A stretch of DNA of 64,000 nt from an uncultured candidate division Zixibacteria bacterium. GTDB lineage: Bacteria > Zixibacteria > MSB-5A5 > UBA10806. A model generated the notes under the pieces. That model saw only the letters and a program-made list of their open reading frames with translations, had not been told where the DNA came from and searched no databases. A program made the translations under genes and the position numbers. The DNA lies in NCBI GenBank assembly GCA_963817915.1, contig CAWFQL010000012.1:32001-96000 (forward strand), written 5' to 3'. Positions 35 through 9,290 of this stretch are shown here, in pieces; position 1 is the stretch's first letter; each line of letters begins with the position of its first letter.

Positions 35-435
35 ATTATTTCTCCCGTGAATATTATTTGCTCCAAACATTAATGATTTCAAAAATCCTTTATTCTCCAG
101 ATGTCAAACTACTCTATCAAGGGCAAATATAATGCCGATTTGGCTTATGGCAAAGCCTGATTTTCATTGCCCAAAATTCATACAAAAGCCAAAGTCTTTT
201 CTGCCGCGCTATGTGCGCGACCATTATGGCATGTCGTATCCCGGTGTCAATCAATGATTTAGAAAAGCCCCAACTGCCCCATCTTATCAATTAAACAGGC
301 GGTTATCTCTATGAGTTCCATTATCTTCGCCTTTGCGGACGTGGCTTGAAATCCGCTAAATGAATTGGCTTGCATAGCTTATTTATTGACTTATTTGCCC
401 CCAATCAGATATTCTTACACCGAAAGGAGATATTT

Positions 436-966
436 ATGAATGACAAAAGTTTACCTGATAAGAAAGCATTGGCGGCTGCCATAGAGATGGAAGAAAAAGG
501 ACATAAATTTTATATGGAGACCGCGGCCAAAGCCGACAACAAATTGGCCAAAGAGGTTTTCGAGTATCTGGCCAAAGAAGAACTGAATCATATCAACGCC
601 ATCAAGAAATTCAACTCCGAATTTCTCAAGGGCGGCGCGACCAAGATCGATGCCATCATAGATGATATCAAAAAGGGGAAAGGCACGACCGCATTCGACC
701 AGCTATTCAAGAGCCTTTCCAAGAACGTGCCGACTGGCGGAAGCGATATCGACGCTTACAAATTCGCCAGCGATTTCGAACGAAAAGGGGAAGCGTTCTA
801 TAAAAAGGCCGAGGCCGAGGCTGTCGACAAGAATGCCAAAAAGCTGTATGGATTTTTGGTCGGCGAGGAAAAGAAGCATTTCAAGATAGTCGATTCCTGC
901 CTGCTCTATTTCGATAACTCCGAGGAGTTTTTCCATCAACGGGAGAAATGGCACGTAGAGGGGTAG
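436..966 (+). CDS. Rubrerythrin/ferritin-like di-iron protein without a rubredoxin domain
   Basis: Duplicated E..(EE)xxH motifs (EMEEKG...EELNH; FERKG...EEKKH); AAGGAG RBS before ATG 436. Confidence 0.85.
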   Translation: MNDKSLPDKKALAAAIEMEEKGHKFYMETAAKADNKLAKEVFEYLAKEELNHINAIKKFNSEFLKGGATKIDAIIDDIKKGKGTTAFDQLFKSLSKNVPTGGSDIDAYKFASDFERKGEAFYKKAEAEAVDKNAKKLYGFLVGEEKKHFKIVDSCLLYFDNSEEFFHQREKWHVEG

Positions 967-1665: not shown

Positions 1666-1762
1666 GCCAGCGAAAGTGCGGACGCGAGACCAGGCACATA
1701 GAAAGGCAGTCATAATAGAATGGCGGGACAGATTGCCCCGCCATTTAGATATTAGAATCCTA

Positions 1763-3196
1763 TTACTTCAGCAGTAAGAGCTTTTTGATCGAAGTCTTAT
1801 CGCTACTCGTTAGTCGGTAGAAGTAGATTCCGCTTGAAATCGAGTTTCCAGCCTTGTTTTTTCCATCCCAAATAAATCGATGTGTTCCCGGCTGCATTTG
1901 TTGATCGATCAACGTATTAATTTTCTGTCCCAGGATATTGTATATGACCAGTTCGACGTTGCCGGGTTCGGCGATATCGAACATGATAGTCGTATGGGAA
2001 TTGAATGGATTAGGATAATTTTGGTATAGGTTGAATTTCTGCGGGAGCATCGCCGGTTCTAATTTGCCTGTGCCGAAGATAATTCTAAATGACTGTATTC
2101 CGGATGAATCGGCCCATAGCTCGCATATATTCATTTCATCGCTGTCGATATAGATATCCGACGGATAATCGAATTGACCCGGCCCGTATCCCTGTTCCCC
2201 ATAGATCGATATTATTCTATCGAGGTTCGGGGCGATAACTGTAATGTGGTGATTGAATTCGTCGAGAATGTAGATATTATCATAGCTATCAGCGTCGATG
2301 GCGGCGATGTATGGATATGGAGTCATAGGAAATGTATATTGTCTTTCGGCATAGATAGGTCCTGATGATTCCGAATAGTATCTGACGACTCTGTGGTTTT
2401 TCGAATCTGTGACATAAAATCTATTAGGCCAATTCAGCGTAGATGCGGCAGTAATTCCTGTGGGGTAACCGAGAGCCCCCATACTCTCGCCTCTTCCCGC
2501 AAATTGAGCCTTAATTACGCCGGCAGAAGAAAATTTGATTATTGCCGGGATGAAACCATCGGTGACAAGAATGTCAAAACCTGGATAACCGATGTCGCCG
2601 TAGTTTGTCACTTCTATCGCCGTCGGAAAACGCAAAATATTCTGCCCGAAAGAATTCAGCCAAATCAAAGAATCAAGAGTAATATCGTATTTCAATTTTA
2701 CAATTCTCTGGTTCTGCCGGTCCAAAACATAAATGAAATCCAATTCCGAGTTGTAAAACCTCCCAGCCGAGGTTACCGCGATGTCGACAGGATGATTGAA
2801 ACATTCAACCGAGTCGCGATAGTTGGGAAAAAACTGAAGCGTATCCTCGGAACCGAAAGAGATTGTGGGGGGAATTAGGTTTTTGCCATAGGTATTAATG
2901 TCAGTTGGCCAGGAGACACCTGCTGAATCCTTTAGAGTAAATATAATGATCCTGTGAAGCGGGGCATCGCAAAAGAGATATTTCCTCTCTTCGTAGTTTC
3001 CTTTATTCAGTCTTAAGAGCGCACCGCCCGACGGCTGGCTGAATAAAATCAGCGAATCGCCTATCTTTTCGGTGACATAATCCCACGTCAACCTTGGCGG
3101 ACCGACGGTATTCAGAAAATCGGTAGTTTCAATTATCGGATCCGCCGATGCCATACCTGCTACCAAGAATAATATTATAATTAGATATCTTTTCAT
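1763..3196 (-). CDS. Secreted NHL-repeat beta-propeller protein with a T9SS/FlgD-Ig-like C-terminal sorting domain
   Basis: Signal peptide MKRYLIIILFLVAGMASA; NHL-like repeats (FNHPVDIAV, LGYPTGI, FDYPSDIYID); C-terminal LYQNYPNPFN...SSGIYFYRL...KKLLLLK. Confidence 0.8.
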   Translation of the reverse strand: MKRYLIIILFLVAGMASADPIIETTDFLNTVGPPRLTWDYVTEKIGDSLILFSQPSGGALLRLNKGNYEERKYLFCDAPLHRIIIFTLKDSAGVSWPTDINTYGKNLIPPTISFGSEDTLQFFPNYRDSVECFNHPVDIAVTSAGRFYNSELDFIYVLDRQNQRIVKLKYDITLDSLIWLNSFGQNILRFPTAIEVTNYGDIGYPGFDILVTDGFIPAIIKFSSAGVIKAQFAGRGESMGALGYPTGITAASTLNWPNRFYVTDSKNHRVVRYYSESSGPIYAERQYTFPMTPYPYIAAIDADSYDNIYILDEFNHHITVIAPNLDRIISIYGEQGYGPGQFDYPSDIYIDSDEMNICELWADSSGIQSFRIIFGTGKLEPAMLPQKFNLYQNYPNPFNSHTTIMFDIAEPGNVELVIYNILGQKINTLIDQQMQPGTHRFIWDGKNKAGNSISSGIYFYRLTSSDKTSIKKLLLLK

Positions 3197-3198
3197 TT

Positions 3199-4314
3199 CT
3201 ACCTCCATCCTACTCTTAGCCAGGTAGCTTCGTTGTTGCGAGTGTCGAAGATAAGCAACATGGCAGGAGAAAAATATTCAGTATTTTCTTCCTGAAAAAA
3301 ATAGTAAACAATGAAATCACCGACAACGTCTGCCAATCCGTCGTCATAACCGGGATAATTTCCTTCTGGATAATCGCTTATGGGATGTTGCTCCAGTATT
3401 GCGAGAGTTTCGGGATCGATGACAATCACTTTAGGTTCAATGTGAAATTCCTCCCGTCTTTTGTAAACAGAATCTATACTTGCTCCATGTAATTCGTAGT
3501 TGACTTGCAAGCAGTAGAACTTGTTTCGCGCTGGGTGATAAGCGAAAACTGTATTTGCTCCTCTCTGAGGCCTAAGTTGTATGGAATCAATAATAGACGA
3601 GAGACCGCTATTTAACTTAACAAGCCACCATTGAGAATCATTAAAAATAGTGTAATATAGGCGATTAATAGAATCATTTGGAACCCTAATGAGGAATTCA
3701 TGAGAATCTATATAACGTATGAGTCCTGGCTCGTCAAATGAGTCGAGTCGGTTGCGAAGCCTAAAATTAAGGCCATCATCAATGTTGTATAGACCGAAAG
3801 GCAAAAGAGCAGTTGAATCGCGATCGCTTCTTAATCCGAATCTGAAACCTTGCTCTCCCTGATATTGCCTAAAAATATTAATAATGGCACCTGAAACACT
3901 ATCACTTCGCAATAAAGATAAATGGCCAGCATCTGCACGCAAAACCGAATAAAAAGCTTTATATCGGTTTCCAGACATCGTATTTCTTCCGACTGCACCA
4001 TATTCGCTCATCGTGATTAAAAAATCCCGATTACGCAGGGATATTATCGCAGGCTTTTTAAACCAAATGTTACCTCTATTAGCCAATCTTACCGATTCAT
4101 GAATCGAATGAGTATTCAAATCCACCGATTTGATATAGATATCTGCAAGATTATCTTCTGTAGGATTATCATATACATTGACATAATAGTATTGGGCTGC
4201 CAATCCAATCGGAAAAGCAATTAATATGACGACAGCTAGCGCCAGAATTCTACTTCTTTGTAAATTGCTATCGCCAAGGTTTACGGTACGTGTATTTTCT
4301 GATATCTTGAACAT
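3199..4314 (-). CDS. Exported hypothetical protein, paralog of 5053-6084 (candidate immunity protein)
   Basis: Hydrophobic signal then AQYYYVNVYD; ends PAMLLIFDTRNNEATWLRVGWR; likely start ATG 4314 with GAGG upstream. Confidence 0.7.
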   Translation of the reverse strand: MFKISENTRTVNLGDSNLQRSRILALAVVILIAFPIGLAAQYYYVNVYDNPTEDNLADIYIKSVDLNTHSIHESVRLANRGNIWFKKPAIISLRNRDFLITMSEYGAVGRNTMSGNRYKAFYSVLRADAGHLSLLRSDSVSGAIINIFRQYQGEQGFRFGLRSDRDSTALLPFGLYNIDDGLNFRLRNRLDSFDEPGLIRYIDSHEFLIRVPNDSINRLYYTIFNDSQWWLVKLNSGLSSIIDSIQLRPQRGANTVFAYHPARNKFYCLQVNYELHGASIDSVYKRREEFHIEPKVIVIDPETLAILEQHPISDYPEGNYPGYDDGLADVVGDFIVYYFFQEENTEYFSPAMLLIFDTRNNEATWLRVGWR

Positions 4315-5056
4315 ATTCCGCCTCTTTAGTTGGTGGTGGGGTTGTCCCGATTTTAGTCTTCCAGTCTGCATCACTTAAAATTTGTGCCATCATTGTTTCA
4401 TTTGTATAATACCCATAAGCCTTTAAATCTTCCTTATTCTTTTTGCTTGGGAAAGTATCGCAGTCAGCGAAAGGGCATGAATCTGGAAATAATTTTTGCG
4501 TTGACATGAATCTATTTGGCAAATATACATCATGGATGAATTTGCCATTCCTAATGAGAGCTTGCCAATTCCAGGCTAAACTGTCCCAAGTTGCCCGAAC
4601 ATAGCCAGTATCAGCGGGTATGCGTGGTATAGCGGCAAAGTATGCATGCCACCATTTTCTCATAATCTGCATTATTCCGGTTGCCGTGCTCACTCCATTC
4701 TCACAAGGCGTCTTGGTATCAGGCCAATAATGATTCCATTGATAATAACCATGTTGGTGCGGGGGATAGGGAATGAATCCTGCCGCCTCCTTCCATGCTA
4801 ATGCTCTAATTCTATCTCTTTTTAGAGAGTCAGCGAATAAGCTATTAGATGGATCTTGGTCAATCAAAATTCTCTTCGTTTGGATTGTATCGCCATTTGT
4901 CCCCAAAGTATCTGTAGTGACGTCGAAACTTCCATCCAACCCCCAAAATGTCGTGAACCTTCCTTTGGCTTCTATAGTAAGCAACCCTCCGACGACTGCT
5001 AATGAATCCCTTCTGAAAGTAACGGAATAATTTTGGTCATTGCCATCCCCGATCAT
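4268..5056 (-). CDS. Divergent lysozyme-like/lytic transglycosylase (SLT-type) domain protein with no signal peptide
   Basis: ALAWKE90, ATGIMQI (GLMQ-like), AYGY and EAEYVQDI occur in the order expected for SLT motifs. Confidence 0.6.
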   Translation of the reverse strand: MIGDGNDQNYSVTFRRDSLAVVGGLLTIEAKGRFTTFWGLDGSFDVTTDTLGTNGDTIQTKRILIDQDPSNSLFADSLKRDRIRALAWKEAAGFIPYPPHQHGYYQWNHYWPDTKTPCENGVSTATGIMQIMRKWWHAYFAAIPRIPADTGYVRATWDSLAWNWQALIRNGKFIHDVYLPNRFMSTQKLFPDSCPFADCDTFPSKKNKEDLKAYGYYTNETMMAQILSDADWKTKIGTTPPPTKEAEYVQDIRKYTYRKPWR

Positions 5057-6084
5057 TCGTCCTTACTCCAGCCTACGCGGAGCCAGGTGGCCTCGTTTGT
5101 GCGGGTGTCAAAGATGAAAAGCATGGCGGGGTATAACTGACTTATATCGTTTGAATCACCAAAAAAATAAACAATAAATGGTCCCATGACATCGGCGACT
5201 CCTGTCTTACCATTTATGAAATCGCCTCTTGGATAATCTGGGACGGACAACGAATCTCTTAGTGTGAAATCCGTTATATTGTAGATATTAACGTGATTGT
5301 CTATCCATTCATCCCCATAGCCTTTGTTGAATGGCCAGTCCAAATGAGTTTCATAATTAAGCGCAAATACATAAAGCAGACTATCCTTAACTGCGAAAAC
5401 TTGGTTTGCACTGTCATAGTTATGGAATATAAGGCTATCGACATACATATCTCGAAATCCGTCTAATTTGACAATAATGAAATCATTATCTACTATGTCA
5501 TAATATAGTTCATTTCCAATTAATATAGAAAAGCTGTTTGGCGTTAATCCCTTATAGGATCCCGGAAAATAACCGGGAACCACTTGACGTATTTTATTCA
5601 AATTGAAATCAGAATTGAGATTGTATATTCCGTCTAAGGATGAGCTGCTGTCTCCAATTTGATATATTCTCTCGACGAATAATTCGGTTTTGGCATTTTT
5701 CCTGAAATCTATTATTAACTGTCCGGGCAAGTCGTATTGATGCGATAATTGTCTGGTTCGCAGATTTATTATCGATAAATTGGTATTGTAATCACCAGCC
5801 GACGTGTTTTTGCAGATACATTTACTGACAATGGCTGTTATTAATACTGTATCGCCATAAATCGCAAAATCAATGGGTATGGTGTTAATAATCTCACCCT
5901 CATCGACTAAAATAAATTCATCTGTAATAGCTTTCGTTTCTAAATTGACGAATTTAGTTTTTATTTCATAGAACCCGGATGATCCCCTCGTGGTGTCATA
6001 TACATTGACGTAATATTCTTGTGCCCATGAATCGCCCGCAAGTAACATTAATATAAATAGTACCCCAAATCTAATCCTTTTCAT
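5053..6084 (-). CDS. Exported hypothetical protein, paralog of 3199-4314 (candidate immunity protein)
   Basis: Signal peptide then AQEYYVNVYD; ends PAMLFIFDTRTNEATWLRVGWSKDE. Confidence 0.7.
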   Translation of the reverse strand: MKRIRFGVLFILMLLAGDSWAQEYYVNVYDTTRGSSGFYEIKTKFVNLETKAITDEFILVDEGEIINTIPIDFAIYGDTVLITAIVSKCICKNTSAGDYNTNLSIINLRTRQLSHQYDLPGQLIIDFRKNAKTELFVERIYQIGDSSSSLDGIYNLNSDFNLNKIRQVVPGYFPGSYKGLTPNSFSILIGNELYYDIVDNDFIIVKLDGFRDMYVDSLIFHNYDSANQVFAVKDSLLYVFALNYETHLDWPFNKGYGDEWIDNHVNIYNITDFTLRDSLSVPDYPRGDFINGKTGVADVMGPFIVYFFGDSNDISQLYPAMLFIFDTRTNEATWLRVGWSKDE

Positions 6085-6189
6085 ATTAGTCCCTTTTTCC
6101 CAATCGATCCTGGCCGAAACGATCTAAACAATTAAACTAATGTCATATTATACTCCCGAATATCATTTGTTTCAATTAATAAATAAAAT

Positions 6190-6216
6190 AAAAAAAGGGC
6201 GAGTAGCCTCGCCCCT
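6190..6216 (-). terminator. Intrinsic terminator of hppA
   Basis: GGGCGAG-gcta-CTCGCCC followed by a T run on the minus strand. Confidence 0.8.
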
Positions 6217-6238: not shown

Positions 6239-8474
6239 TTAGATAAACAGCGGCGCTAAGACCAATGTTATAGTCGATAGCAGTTTTATCAAGACATGTA
6301 ATGACGGCCCCGCCGTATCCTTGAAGGGATCGCCGACCGTATCGCCGACCACCGCCGCGCTGTGAGTCGGATTCTTGATCTTTTTACCGTCCGGGCCTGT
6401 TATATACTTGCCGCCATAGGCGCCGGATTCGATATACTTTTTGGCATTGTCCCAGGCTCCGCCGCCATTATTTAGCATGAGCGCCAGAAGAATTCCGGCA
6501 ATCGTACCGACCATCAATAACGCCGCCACCGATTGAGCGGCAATCAGCGGGTCTTCCGGTGTGATGAAGATTTTGAAGACTGTGCCGACTATAATCGGAG
6601 TCAGAACTACCAGCAAGCCCGGCAATATCATCTGCCTTAACGCCGCCTTTGTAACAATATCAACACAGGTGCCGTAATCCGGTTCGAAATTCTTGGGGAA
6701 CTGAATCATATCATTCTCGCGCGGCAATGACGCGTACTGTCTGCGAACTTCGGCGATAATCGCCTGAGCCGCCTTGCCGACCGCGCGTATCGCCATCGAT
6801 GTGAACAAGAACACCAGCATCGCGCCTAATAACGCGCCGACAAACACGACCGGTTTCGACAGATCGACATTGAAGATAAATCCGCTGTCCAGTCCGGCGT
6901 ACTGCTTGACCTCATCCATGTAAGCCTGGAATAACAAAAATGCCGCCAACGCCGCCGAGCCGATGGCATAGCCTTTTGTCAACGCCTTGGTAGTGTTACC
7001 AACAGAATCCAGTCTGTCGGTTTTCTTGCGAATCTCTTCCGGCTGTTGTGACATCTCCACGATGCCGCCGGCGTTATCTGTTATAGGCCCGAATGTATCC
7101 ATTGCCAATATATAGGCCGCGGTCGCGAGCATTCCCATGGTGGCTACCGCTGTGCCGAAAAGTCCCGGCGTTGGGAAGGCCGCTCGATTGTCCGAGAAAA
7201 TATGATGCCAGAAGCGCCGCGCCCATGACCAATGTCGGATAGGCGGTGCATTCGAAACCGACCGCTATGCCTGATATAATATTGGTCGCCGGGCCAGTCT
7301 GCGAAGCCTCCGCAATCGATTTGACTGGACGGTATTTATATTCGGTGTAGTATTGTGTTATATAAACAAATGCCACCGATGTCAGCACTCCCATGATGCC
7401 GCATAAGAAGAAATGCCACCATGCCTGCGGAGCTTGCGGGCTATTCAAAAGCCAATAGGTCGCGCCGCCGAAGGCTATCATCGCCAGGATAACCGCTACA
7501 TAATAGCCGCGGTTCAAGGCTGTCATCGGATCCATTTTCTCCTGCTTGTCCAATTTAACAAACATGATACCAACGATCGAGGCTATGATTCCAAATGCGC
7601 GCGCTACCAATGGGAACATGATCACCCCGATTATGCCCCACGAGAATTCCATGCTCGCCTTCTGGGCTGTTGCCGCAAGCGACGCGCCCAATATCATTGC
7701 GCCGATATTTTCGGCAGCGGTCGACTCAAATAGATCGGCTCCACGACCGGCGCAATCGCCGACATTATCACCGACTAAATCTGCAATTACAGCAGGGTTG
7801 CGAGGATCGTCTTCAGGGATACCAGCTTCGACTTTACCCACGAGATCGGCTCCAACATCAGCGGCCTTGGTATAAATACCGCCGCCAAGCTGGGCAAATA
7901 GCGCTACAAATGACGCGCCGAATCCATAGCCGACAATCAAAAGCGGTATTTTGGTTGGCTCGATTGCGCTTATCCAATGAACAAGAGCATATAAGCCCGA
8001 TACTCCCAGCAAGCTCATCGAAACAACCAATAACCCCGATACCGCGCCGCCGCGAAGGGCGATACGCAAGGCGTCATTCAGGCTCGATAAGGCCGCATGG
8101 GCGGTTCTGATATTGCTTCGTATCGAAATCCACATTCCGACATAGCCCGCGAAGACCGAGCATAACGCCCCGAATACAAATGATATCGTAATCCATGTTG
8201 CCAGTTCCAGCGAGCTGCCGACAGGATCGAAGTCCCGGTGGCTTCGAATAAAACCGTAGCCGATAAACAGCAACGCCGCCAAGACCAACGCCAGCAACAA
8301 AATAGTGCGGTTTTGTCTTCTCAGGAACGCCTCGGCACCGGCTTTGATAGCATTCGAGATTTTTTGCATCGCCTCGCTACCGGTACTGTGCTTGAGTACC
8401 CATCGACTGAGATAATAGGCGAACGCAAGCCCGGCTATACTGATTGCAATGACCAATAAAATCAATTCCTGCAT
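6239..8474 (-). CDS. hppA: Membrane-bound H+-translocating pyrophosphatase, K+-independent type; +1 frameshift near 7165
   Basis: GGGIYTKAADVGADLVGKVE, DNVGDCAG, GNTTK (Lys determinant), GDTVGDPFKDTAGP; removing one G from GCCGGGACTT joins the two ORFs. Confidence 0.92.
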
Positions 8475-8864
8475 AATTTTAAACTCCTGTCCTTTTTGTC
8501 AAAAGACGATTGATATTATATTTATTTTCCCTATTTTCATTAAATTAAGTTGGCGTGGATGATAATTTCCCTTTGCTCCCCAAATACCTTTGAACCCCCT
8601 GCCATTTGGATAAACATGACTCGACATCATATTTATATTGGCTATGGTTGTCAATAAAAATATCCACCATTGCGAAGCCAAAATATGTCTCTAAAATAGC
8701 CATTTTTTTATTCTTGAACCAGGCTTATCAGTTGCAATAGTTAAATTCAACTTCATCGTGTTTCAAAAGTAAGCATTTTGGACGCCAAAAAGCTCGTTGG
8801 CTGCTTGAGTATTCAATTTTACCGATACTATGGTAAAAGATTGAATTTATGCGACGGGGATAAT

Positions 8865-9290
8865 ATGGACCTAAAATGGAATGACGATTTGCTGACTGGA
8901 AATGCGGTAATAGATACTCAACATAAAGAGCTTTTTAATAGAATTGCGCTTTTTCATGAAGCCTGCAAAAAGGGGCAGGGAAGAGCTGAGCTTTTTAAAG
9001 CATATATGTTTTTGGGCAACTATGTGTTGGAGCATTTCGCCGATGAAGAAGCATTTCAGAGACAATATTCCTATCCCGAATATGAAATCCATAAGGCACA
9101 TCACGAGCAATTTCTGAAAACTTTTATCGAACATAAGAAAAAACTTGAGGAAAATGGCGCGACTATCAGTGCTGTCAACGACACTATCATTTTAATGGGC
9201 AAATGGATTGACGATCATATTAATAATATGGATAAGAGATTGGCGAATTTCCTCAAAGAGAAGAAAAAAGAGAATTACCAGAATGTATAA
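8865..9290 (+). CDS. Bacteriohemerythrin (single-domain hemerythrin)
   Basis: W..DLLTG...IDTQHKELF, HFADEE, HKAHH, WIDDHINNMD. Confidence 0.9.
   Translation: MDLKWNDDLLTGNAVIDTQHKELFNRIALFHEACKKGQGRAELFKAYMFLGNYVLEHFADEEAFQRQYSYPEYEIHKAHHEQFLKTFIEHKKKLEENGATISAVNDTIILMGKWIDDHINNMDKRLANFLKEKKKENYQNV

Follow-up and report, generated by a model that had tools for sequence, protein, structure and literature searches.

A divergent lytic transglycosylase matched by type to an exported beta-propeller in Zixibacteria: a candidate peptidoglycan toxin-immunity system

The described systems closest to the locus reported here include wall-directed bacteriocins such as colicin M, whose immunity protein is Cmi. 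The bacteriocin pesticin, as described in PMC3390615, is a muramidase whose immunity protein, Pim, resides in the periplasm, and its operon has no lysis gene. Tsi1, the immunity partner of Tse1, an effector of type VI secretion (T6SS), is described in PMC3391265 as an incomplete beta-propeller, and PMC7073777 describes TANFOR toxins of Bacteroidetes that carry a signal peptide, have no sorting domain and are adjoined by genes for type IX secretion system (T9SS) cargo. Here we describe a cassette of four coupled genes in a 64,000-nucleotide stretch of DNA (hereafter the window) from an uncultured candidate division Zixibacteria bacterium (GenBank assembly GCA_963817915.1, contig CAWFQL010000012.1, positions 32,001 to 96,000 of the forward strand). 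A gene for a short and very divergent lytic transglycosylase (LT) lies between genes for two exported beta-propellers, and the second propeller gene is followed by one for an NHL-repeat protein. The LT and the propeller encoded downstream of it appear to form a two-gene module family restricted to Zixibacteria, and we give an even chance to the proposal that the cassette specifies an antibacterial, bacteriocin-like LT together with a periplasmic propeller immunity protein. The four genes occupy positions 1763-6084 of the window on the minus strand and are listed below from 5' to 3'; the signal peptides of LTs and propellers were judged by eye throughout.

5053..6084, minus strand: propeller A (343 aa), an exported beta-propeller with seven blades; its signal peptide ends SWA-QE
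4268..5056, minus strand: the LT, a predicted short, divergent SLT/GH23 lytic transglycosylase of 262 aa, recognised by its fold and by Glu90 and G127-I-M-Q130
3199..4314, minus strand: propeller B, an exported beta-propeller of 371 aa counted from the ATG at 4314 (3199-4374 in the list of open reading frames)
1763..3196, minus strand: the NHL protein, an NHL-repeat beta-propeller that carries a signal peptide and, at its C-terminus, a T9SS sorting domain of type A (1763-3208, 481 aa, in the list of open reading frames)

The coordinates of the open reading frames (ORFs) and their junctions confirm the order given in the initial annotation, which had described same-strand genes with overlapping or abutting ends. 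An ATGA joins the stop codon of propeller A to the overlapping start codon of the LT. The most likely start of propeller B is the ATG at 4314, which has an AAAGAGG Shine-Dalgarno (SD) sequence upstream and from which the gene shares 47 nt with that of the LT, and the likeliest start of the NHL gene is the ATG at 3196, 7 nt past a GGAGG that lies inside the last codons of propeller B. The cassette is present at a single locus in its own genome.

Sequence and profile searches of Pfam, NCBIfam, PHROGs, PADLOC and the PDB returned nothing usable for the window LT, and its family comprises 29 proteins in a collection of 5.8 billion proteins and 54 clusters among 1.84 billion representatives. The AlphaFold2 (AF2) model has a predicted local distance difference test score (pLDDT) of 68.6 overall, with higher values in the catalytic domain (residues ~68-262) and values below 50 for residues 1-67, which are the stub of a larger N-terminal region. 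A Foldseek search with this model placed lytic transglycosylases and g-type lysozymes at the top (probability 0.95, E 0.03). In a VIA comparison the model aligned with MltC (4c5f) at Z 12.8 over 143 residues (72-262; root-mean-square deviation 3.4 A) and with MltE, Slt, MltF, Cj0843 and g-type lysozymes at Z 9.5-12, and every one of the top 39 rows was a lytic transglycosylase or a g-type lysozyme. The window LT does not reach the gathering score of Pfam SLT (PF01464), and one of 23 family members matches that profile, at E 0.22; two distant members, P0171 and P0173, exceed the cut-off (29.3 and 27.7 versus 21.3 bits). On alignment with these two proteins, Glu90 coincides with the glutamate of their Q-E-S motif and residues 127-130 with their G-x-M-Q. 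Glu90 is invariant in all 23 aligned proteins and, among 30 locus copies that span this position, is retained in 29, G-x-M-Q is present in all 33 locus copies, and the serine that follows the catalytic glutamate is replaced by A, Y, G or W in the LT family. Because the window LT fails the SLT profile while P0171 and P0173 pass it, we rate the link as transitive and structural, and on that footing the middle ORF is predicted to be a new, very divergent branch of SLT/GH23. The lysozyme-like character proposed for this ORF in the initial annotation is thus borne out by the structural matches, led by MltC, and by the catalytic position of Glu90, the residue that had been named there and that the family holds invariant.

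Propellers A and B share 31% identity (110/357; BLASTP E 1e-35), an N-terminal Q.YYVNVYD and a C-terminal DYP...PAML.IFDTR.NEATWLRVGW, and the paralogy and end motifs read earlier from the letters therefore hold under both the BLASTP comparison and a motif check. Both carry signal peptides. The propeller family numbers 95 proteins and has no Pfam domain, and propeller A matches nothing in Pfam or NCBIfam. The AF2 model of propeller A is all-beta (pLDDT 91.8, predicted template modelling score 0.89). Its fold matches are generic 7-bladed propellers (Foldseek from E 2e-7; VIA Z 15.8-12), many of them unrelated, and indicate no function, although the surface ligand-binding lipoproteins XusB and BtuG are among the Foldseek matches. 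The conserved first and last strands would fit a propeller that is closed by its two ends. A relationship between the propellers and the NHL protein was considered and rejected (hhalign probability 1.2%). A single complex prediction, made for LT residues 60-262 with propeller B residues 42-371, scored 0.02 (mark 0.32) and carries no weight either way.

The loci used for comparison come from species-representative genomes (7) and from metagenomes (16). For every one of the 23 modules with a propeller gene downstream, this gene is adjacent to the LT gene and overlaps it. Distances between LT catalytic domains and between their downstream propellers are correlated across 14 modules (r 0.68; 0 of 5000 permutations), in contrast to the distances for upstream propellers (r -0.16; 10 LTs that have one). 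The type of an LT thus appears to match the propeller downstream of it and not the one upstream. In 22 further modules, an A-type propeller comes after the LT in 7 of 7 cases where the LT ends in G(N/H)LW and a B-type propeller in 8 of 8 where its ending is Y.Y.KPW-like, and the remaining 7 LTs precede a third propeller group. By this typing propeller B would be the cognate type for the window LT, which belongs to the Y.Y.KPW class, and propeller A would be an orphan, as its type elsewhere follows G(N/H)LW-ending LTs, a class that is absent from this genome.

The joint between a propeller and the gene that follows it is coded twice over. At 25 of 27 propeller 3' ends the final W-R-stop is written TGG AGG TA(A/G), which supplies a GGAGG, and the next start codon falls within ~12 nt; the gene so preceded is an LT, an NHL or another propeller gene. 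The exceptions are L022 and propeller A of the window (GGAG and AAGGA instead). At each of the 15 propeller-to-LT junctions examined, no more than ~12 nt separate the propeller stop from a start codon; 13 of them have the full GGAGG, and 14 of the 15 precede short or medium LTs. In some copies the final P-W codons of the LT likewise contain the next start codon. Since all 15 junctions offer start codons, the LT forms that have no signal peptide look translated rather than merely decayed. Fusion of propeller and LT by readthrough or frameshifting, through which the LT would gain the signal peptide of the propeller, was also considered and was dropped: no slippery site is seen, and although LT and upstream propeller share a frame in L006 and at one L007 junction, their frames differ in the window and at other junctions.

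These junctions bear on the LT forms that begin directly at them. A search for longer relatives returned 15 proteins of 465-708 aa. Among eight that were inspected, six begin with a Sec signal peptide, one does so after an over-long called start and one is clipped, and six full-length copies within the loci also begin with signal peptides. Full-length LTs are about 650 aa (620-710), and the window LT corresponds to the C-terminal 40% of this form, with the N-terminal region of ~390 residues absent. Its reading frame opens merely 2 codons before the ATG, so that it has neither a signal peptide nor room for one; the other short forms and the medium forms have no signal peptide either. One genome that is 100% complete encodes four LTs, all of them short. 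In our phylum survey the N-terminal region typical of full-length LTs occurs in 4 of the 285 genomes, each time within LT loci, and is absent from the window's own genome; it matched no PDB profile and nothing in the ESM Atlas. Short LTs have a conserved D-S-L-x-V-V-G-G stretch 15-26 residues from their start, which is internal in full-length forms and which may resemble the TonB box that, with a receptor-binding region, marks the N-terminus of TonB-dependent bacteriocins of the pesticin or colicin M type. A fragment of the LT N-terminal region with one TGA (L040, G241:C5:63572-64162) lies directly 5' of the first propeller of a five-propeller array, and suggests that a deletion or rearrangement removed the catalytic part.

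Across the survey the LT was found in 10 genomes and the propeller in 11, with 10 genomes common to both. The expectation that proteins ending in NEATWLRVGW accompany the LT is therefore upheld, in that all 10 LT genomes have a propeller. These genomes belong to two families of a single order, where the unit is found in 10 of 24 genomes and its presence varies within genera; the module is apparently accessory. The metagenome-assembled genomes (MAGs) that contain L005 and L008 (= G244 and G258) are labelled Ignavibacteria, and a genome search places them in the same order and family as the window genome and the MAGs labelled Zixibacteria; the two labels are probably just a matter of who submitted the assembly. 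In the arrays, LT genes take turns with propeller genes over one to four or more modules. The minimal form, a full-length LT, a propeller and the NHL gene, is seen in L019 and L026, and also in L005, where the LT is interrupted by an in-frame stop. In L021, L023 and G244:C1 a module with a short LT comes after one with a full-length LT. Larger arrays occur in G241, with five propellers and four LTs, and in G256, with four of each. Propellers equal or exceed LTs in these and other genomes (propeller to LT 2:1 in the window's own genome, G000, 3:1 in G252, 5:4 in G241, 2:1 in G255 and 1:0 in G260), and the duplication and diversification of the exported partner that was first noticed in propellers A and B proves to be the rule across loci. 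Because the flanking genes differ from locus to locus, with hppA here and EF-Tu, TsaD, chaperonin, Bat/VWA genes or DprA elsewhere, the conserved unit is the cassette itself.

Signs of exchange and of decay are both visible in these arrays. In L006 a tract of 300 nt, made up of the 3' end of a propeller gene and the 5' part of an LT gene, is 99% identical between two modules that otherwise differ, which points to gene conversion at the propeller/LT joint. The LT at L005:5819-7825 contains a single in-frame stop, the propeller at G247:C1:301657-302706 contains three, and two NHL orthologues are interrupted at different sites, by TAG in L019:8233-9867 and by TAA in L021:9687-11222. A recoded stop in the NHL orthologues was rejected, as both codon and position differ, and these are plain nonsense changes. 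If these stops are not errors of assembly, decay seems to be frequent in related loci. The ratio of nonsynonymous to synonymous substitution rates (dN/dS) is 0.16-0.40 in the two pairs whose synonymous sites are unsaturated.

The last gene of the cassette is the only one with a recognisable link to the T9SS. The NHL protein matches Pfam NHL (8.4e-10), Por_Secre_tail (4.5e-8) and TIGR04183 (5e-11; 42.4 bits, cut-off 23), all above their cut-offs, and it alone combines a signal peptide and a sorting domain with a translocon in the genome; in Pfam and NCBIfam searches neither the LT nor either propeller has a T9SS sorting domain. Of the 10 LT genomes, 9 contain an orthologue (E <= 1.6e-84), as does G257, which has neither LT nor propeller, and in arrays whose 3' end is visible the NHL gene usually adjoins the last propeller. 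Any link between the cassette and T9SS would come solely through this conserved neighbour. The window's own genome (3.3 Mb) encodes a 1984-aa SprA-like translocon (C12:120329-125974) and gives at least 150 matches to T9SS type A sorting domains, a predicted secretome that seems very large for a lineage outside the Bacteroidota.

The signals that flank the cassette are as follows.

6195..6216, minus strand: intrinsic terminator of the upstream hppA, a 9-bp stem with 6 GC pairs followed by TTTTTATTTT, which bounds the cassette on its 5' side
6147..6175, minus strand: promoter-like site 5' of propeller A, TTGAAA-17-TATAAT, the best of the region with 11/12 matches in a consensus scan
1722..1742, minus strand: GC-rich hairpin just past the NHL stop, read from the sequence

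The hairpin was not called by the terminator scan, its T-run being weak, and may mark the end of the operon. The initial annotation had also described the cassette as visibly AT-rich and separated from hppA by a terminator. The terminator is there and the AT bias is real, but the bias is modest: GC content is 40.6% in the cassette, 52.2% in hppA and 44.4% on average in the window (standard deviation 2.8 in 1-kb windows). Propeller A (37.1%) is the sole cassette gene in the lowest 1% of 1-kb windows, and hppA is itself an outlier, so that the contrast first noticed is due to hppA as much as to the cassette. The hppA gene (6239-8474, minus strand) consists of two overlapping ORFs in different frames, 7074-8474 and 6239-7138, which match positions 1-377 and 387-645 of the H_PPase profile, respectively; the frameshift near 7100 is either real or an assembly error. 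A rubrerythrin gene (433-966, plus strand) and a gene for a hemerythrin-domain protein (8778-9290, plus strand) flank the cassette region. ORFs 1101-1397 and 1387-1665 are short, overlap and have no Pfam match, and they may be a single frameshifted gene.

Toxin and immunity protein is the reading best supported by these observations, because the active site is intact, the exported partner co-varies with the enzyme and is diversified, propellers are in excess, nonsense mutations are scattered through the copies and the phyletic pattern is patchy. The arrays, gene conversion, propeller excess and nonsense mutations resemble the dynamics of a conflict system. Under this proposal the LT would be a peptidoglycan-cleaving antibacterial toxin, and the propeller a periplasmic immunity protein that binds the type of LT encoded just upstream. 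The window would then hold one module (the short LT and propeller B), the orphan propeller A and the NHL gene, with propeller A protecting against a class of LT that this genome does not encode. Because the signal peptide and the N-terminal region of ~390 residues are absent, the window LT would stay harmless in the cytoplasm unless it got out, perhaps through lysis, and then entered other cells. The fold, motifs, modules, type matching, gene conversion and phyletic pattern are observed; that the LT is toxic, that the propeller inhibits it, that it is released and taken up and that the NHL protein plays any part are what we infer.

Several observations weigh against this proposal. Type matching of the kind seen here could come from the co-duplication of neighbouring genes. 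The comparison loci are all metagenome assemblies, in which some of the stops may be errors, and dN/dS is informative for two pairs only, synonymous sites being saturated elsewhere. The window LT has neither signal peptide nor N-terminal region, and in 6 of the 10 LT genomes only such short forms are encoded. No copy of the N-terminal region is fused to a toxin domain of another kind, in contrast to what is usual in classical polymorphic toxins. At ~330 aa, a propeller would be a large and atypical immunity protein, and Zhang et al. 2012 (PMC3482391) noted no propeller among the immunity proteins then known. The NHL gene is conserved and has no role in the model. The window's own genome, which is 93.9% complete, has no VipB, phage-type sheath or PAAR protein, and delivery by a T6SS or another contractile apparatus was rejected for that reason; the flanks of the arrays contain no conserved lysis or export gene. 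With no sheath, PAAR, lysis or export gene found, the model is missing a delivery route to the target compartment, and the full-length relatives have Sec signal peptides. A broader version of the toxin-immunity proposal is put forward as a doubtful conjecture. In this version the short LTs would be the working toxins of a self-contained bacteriocin system built from exchangeable cassettes; they would be released without a secretion machine, would enter the periplasm of related cells by way of their conserved N-terminal stub and would be stopped only by the matching propeller. The dual-coded junction would serve both as a translational coupler and as the recombination joint at which modules are shuffled, and the NHL protein would be a third component, for release or targeting.

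Three other explanations were weighed against the toxin-immunity proposal, and each accounts for fewer of the observations. The LT could act on the cell's own peptidoglycan, for instance to make way for bulky T9SS cargo or envelope structures or in controlled autolysis, with the periplasmic propeller as its regulator or inhibitor and the NHL protein, at the surface, as a client. Full-length LTs and propellers go to the same periplasm, a unit of LT, propeller and NHL cargo is conserved in L019, L026 and (with its nonsense codon) L005, and SprA and the sorting-domain proteins noted above, at least 150 in number, are encoded in the genome. Yet a unit found in 10 of 24 genomes of the order, and variable within genera, is dispensable, and this patchiness weakens the case for self-directed wall remodelling; tandem diversified modules, gene conversion, orphan propellers and pairing by type would not be expected of a housekeeping enzyme; and most LT copies, for want of a signal peptide, could not get to the wall of the cell that makes them. 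We regard wall remodelling as unlikely. It is also possible that the LT degrades the peptidoglycan of dead cells, or chitin-like glycans, for nutrition, with propellers and NHL protein acting as glycan binders or as partners at the surface and the different modules corresponding to different substrates. The LT fold also ranks near chitinase and GH124 cellulase, XusB and BtuG are found among the Foldseek matches of the propeller, and the genome is rich in T9SS cargo. Scavenging nevertheless leaves the strict one-to-one matching of types unexplained; the LT and propellers have no sorting domain or lipoprotein signal, short LTs have no export signal of any kind and the propeller matches are generic (Z 12-16). 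It is the explanation to which we give least credence.

The remaining alternative concerns the window LT itself, which might be a non-functional leftover beside propellers, kept as acquired protection, and an NHL protein that are still in use. Such a remnant would explain why the ORF covers just the C-terminal 40% of the full-length form, why residues 1-67 model poorly, like an incomplete domain, and why no N-terminal region is found anywhere in the genome, and nonsense mutations are frequent in related loci. The ORF is nonetheless intact and keeps all of the invariant residues, and forms that have no signal peptide recur in other genomes, including the complete genome with four short LTs and no full-length one. 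Start codons at 15 of 15 propeller-to-LT junctions, 13 with the full GGAGG, and the dN/dS of 0.16-0.40 in the two informative pairs also argue against decay, which we consider improbable, a little more so than wall remodelling.

Zixibacteria are an uncultured phylum common in sediments, and we know of nothing that describes how they compete. If the toxin-immunity proposal is true, the modules would represent a new family of peptidoglycan toxins with immunity proteins, the first proposed for this phylum, and would add a full beta-propeller to the known immunity folds. The family would also contribute a very divergent GH23 branch that sequence libraries miss and a small-scale case of modules being shuffled where a gene junction is dual-coded, and the existence of exported full-length and unexported short forms of one putative toxin raises the question of how the enzyme reaches its target. 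A search of literature full text, subscription journals not being covered, returned no account of this LT/propeller system of Zixibacteria.

The closest known systems share some features with the cassette and differ from it in others. With SLT/GH23 enzymes (MltC, MltE, Slt70, MltF) and goose-type lysozymes the LT shares the helical lysozyme-like fold (Z 12.8-9.5) and, when aligned via its Pfam-passing relatives, a glutamate at a helix end and G-x-M-Q; it differs by E-A/Y/G-A-G in place of E-S and by large insertions with conserved Cys, His and Trp. Polymorphic toxins such as those of contact-dependent inhibition (CDI) and Rhs systems also leave 5'-truncated cassettes, each with its partner gene, and show recombination between copies, and stand-alone truncated cassettes of this kind with an adjacent putative immunity gene are found here. 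In contrast to a single N-terminal region that is joined to many toxin folds, the C-terminal domains here all have the LT fold, so that the cassettes keep one enzyme and do not vary the toxin, and truncated cassettes are each equipped with an SD site and a start codon. The TANFOR toxins, as PMC7073777 presents them, offer a parallel to full-length LTs that have a signal peptide, are untagged and lie beside a gene for T9SS cargo. Like Tse1/Tsi1 (PMC3391265), the window module combines an effector that has no signal peptide with an adjacent gene for a periplasmic, here putative, immunity protein, but it differs from this T6SS pair in that the genome has no sheath or PAAR gene and in that the partner is a full 7-bladed propeller of ~330 aa. 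The adjacent, type-specific partner expected of a toxin-immunity pair is present, and the cassette also recalls pesticin/Pim and colicin M/Cmi, which, according to PMC3390615, share with it an unexported wall toxin, an immunity protein that is predicted to be periplasmic in our case, and an operon that has no lysis gene. Pesticin is T4-lysozyme-like whereas the LT belongs to a different lysozyme family, and the cassette departs from both bacteriocins in the signal peptide of full-length LTs, its chromosomal tandem arrays and its propeller partner.

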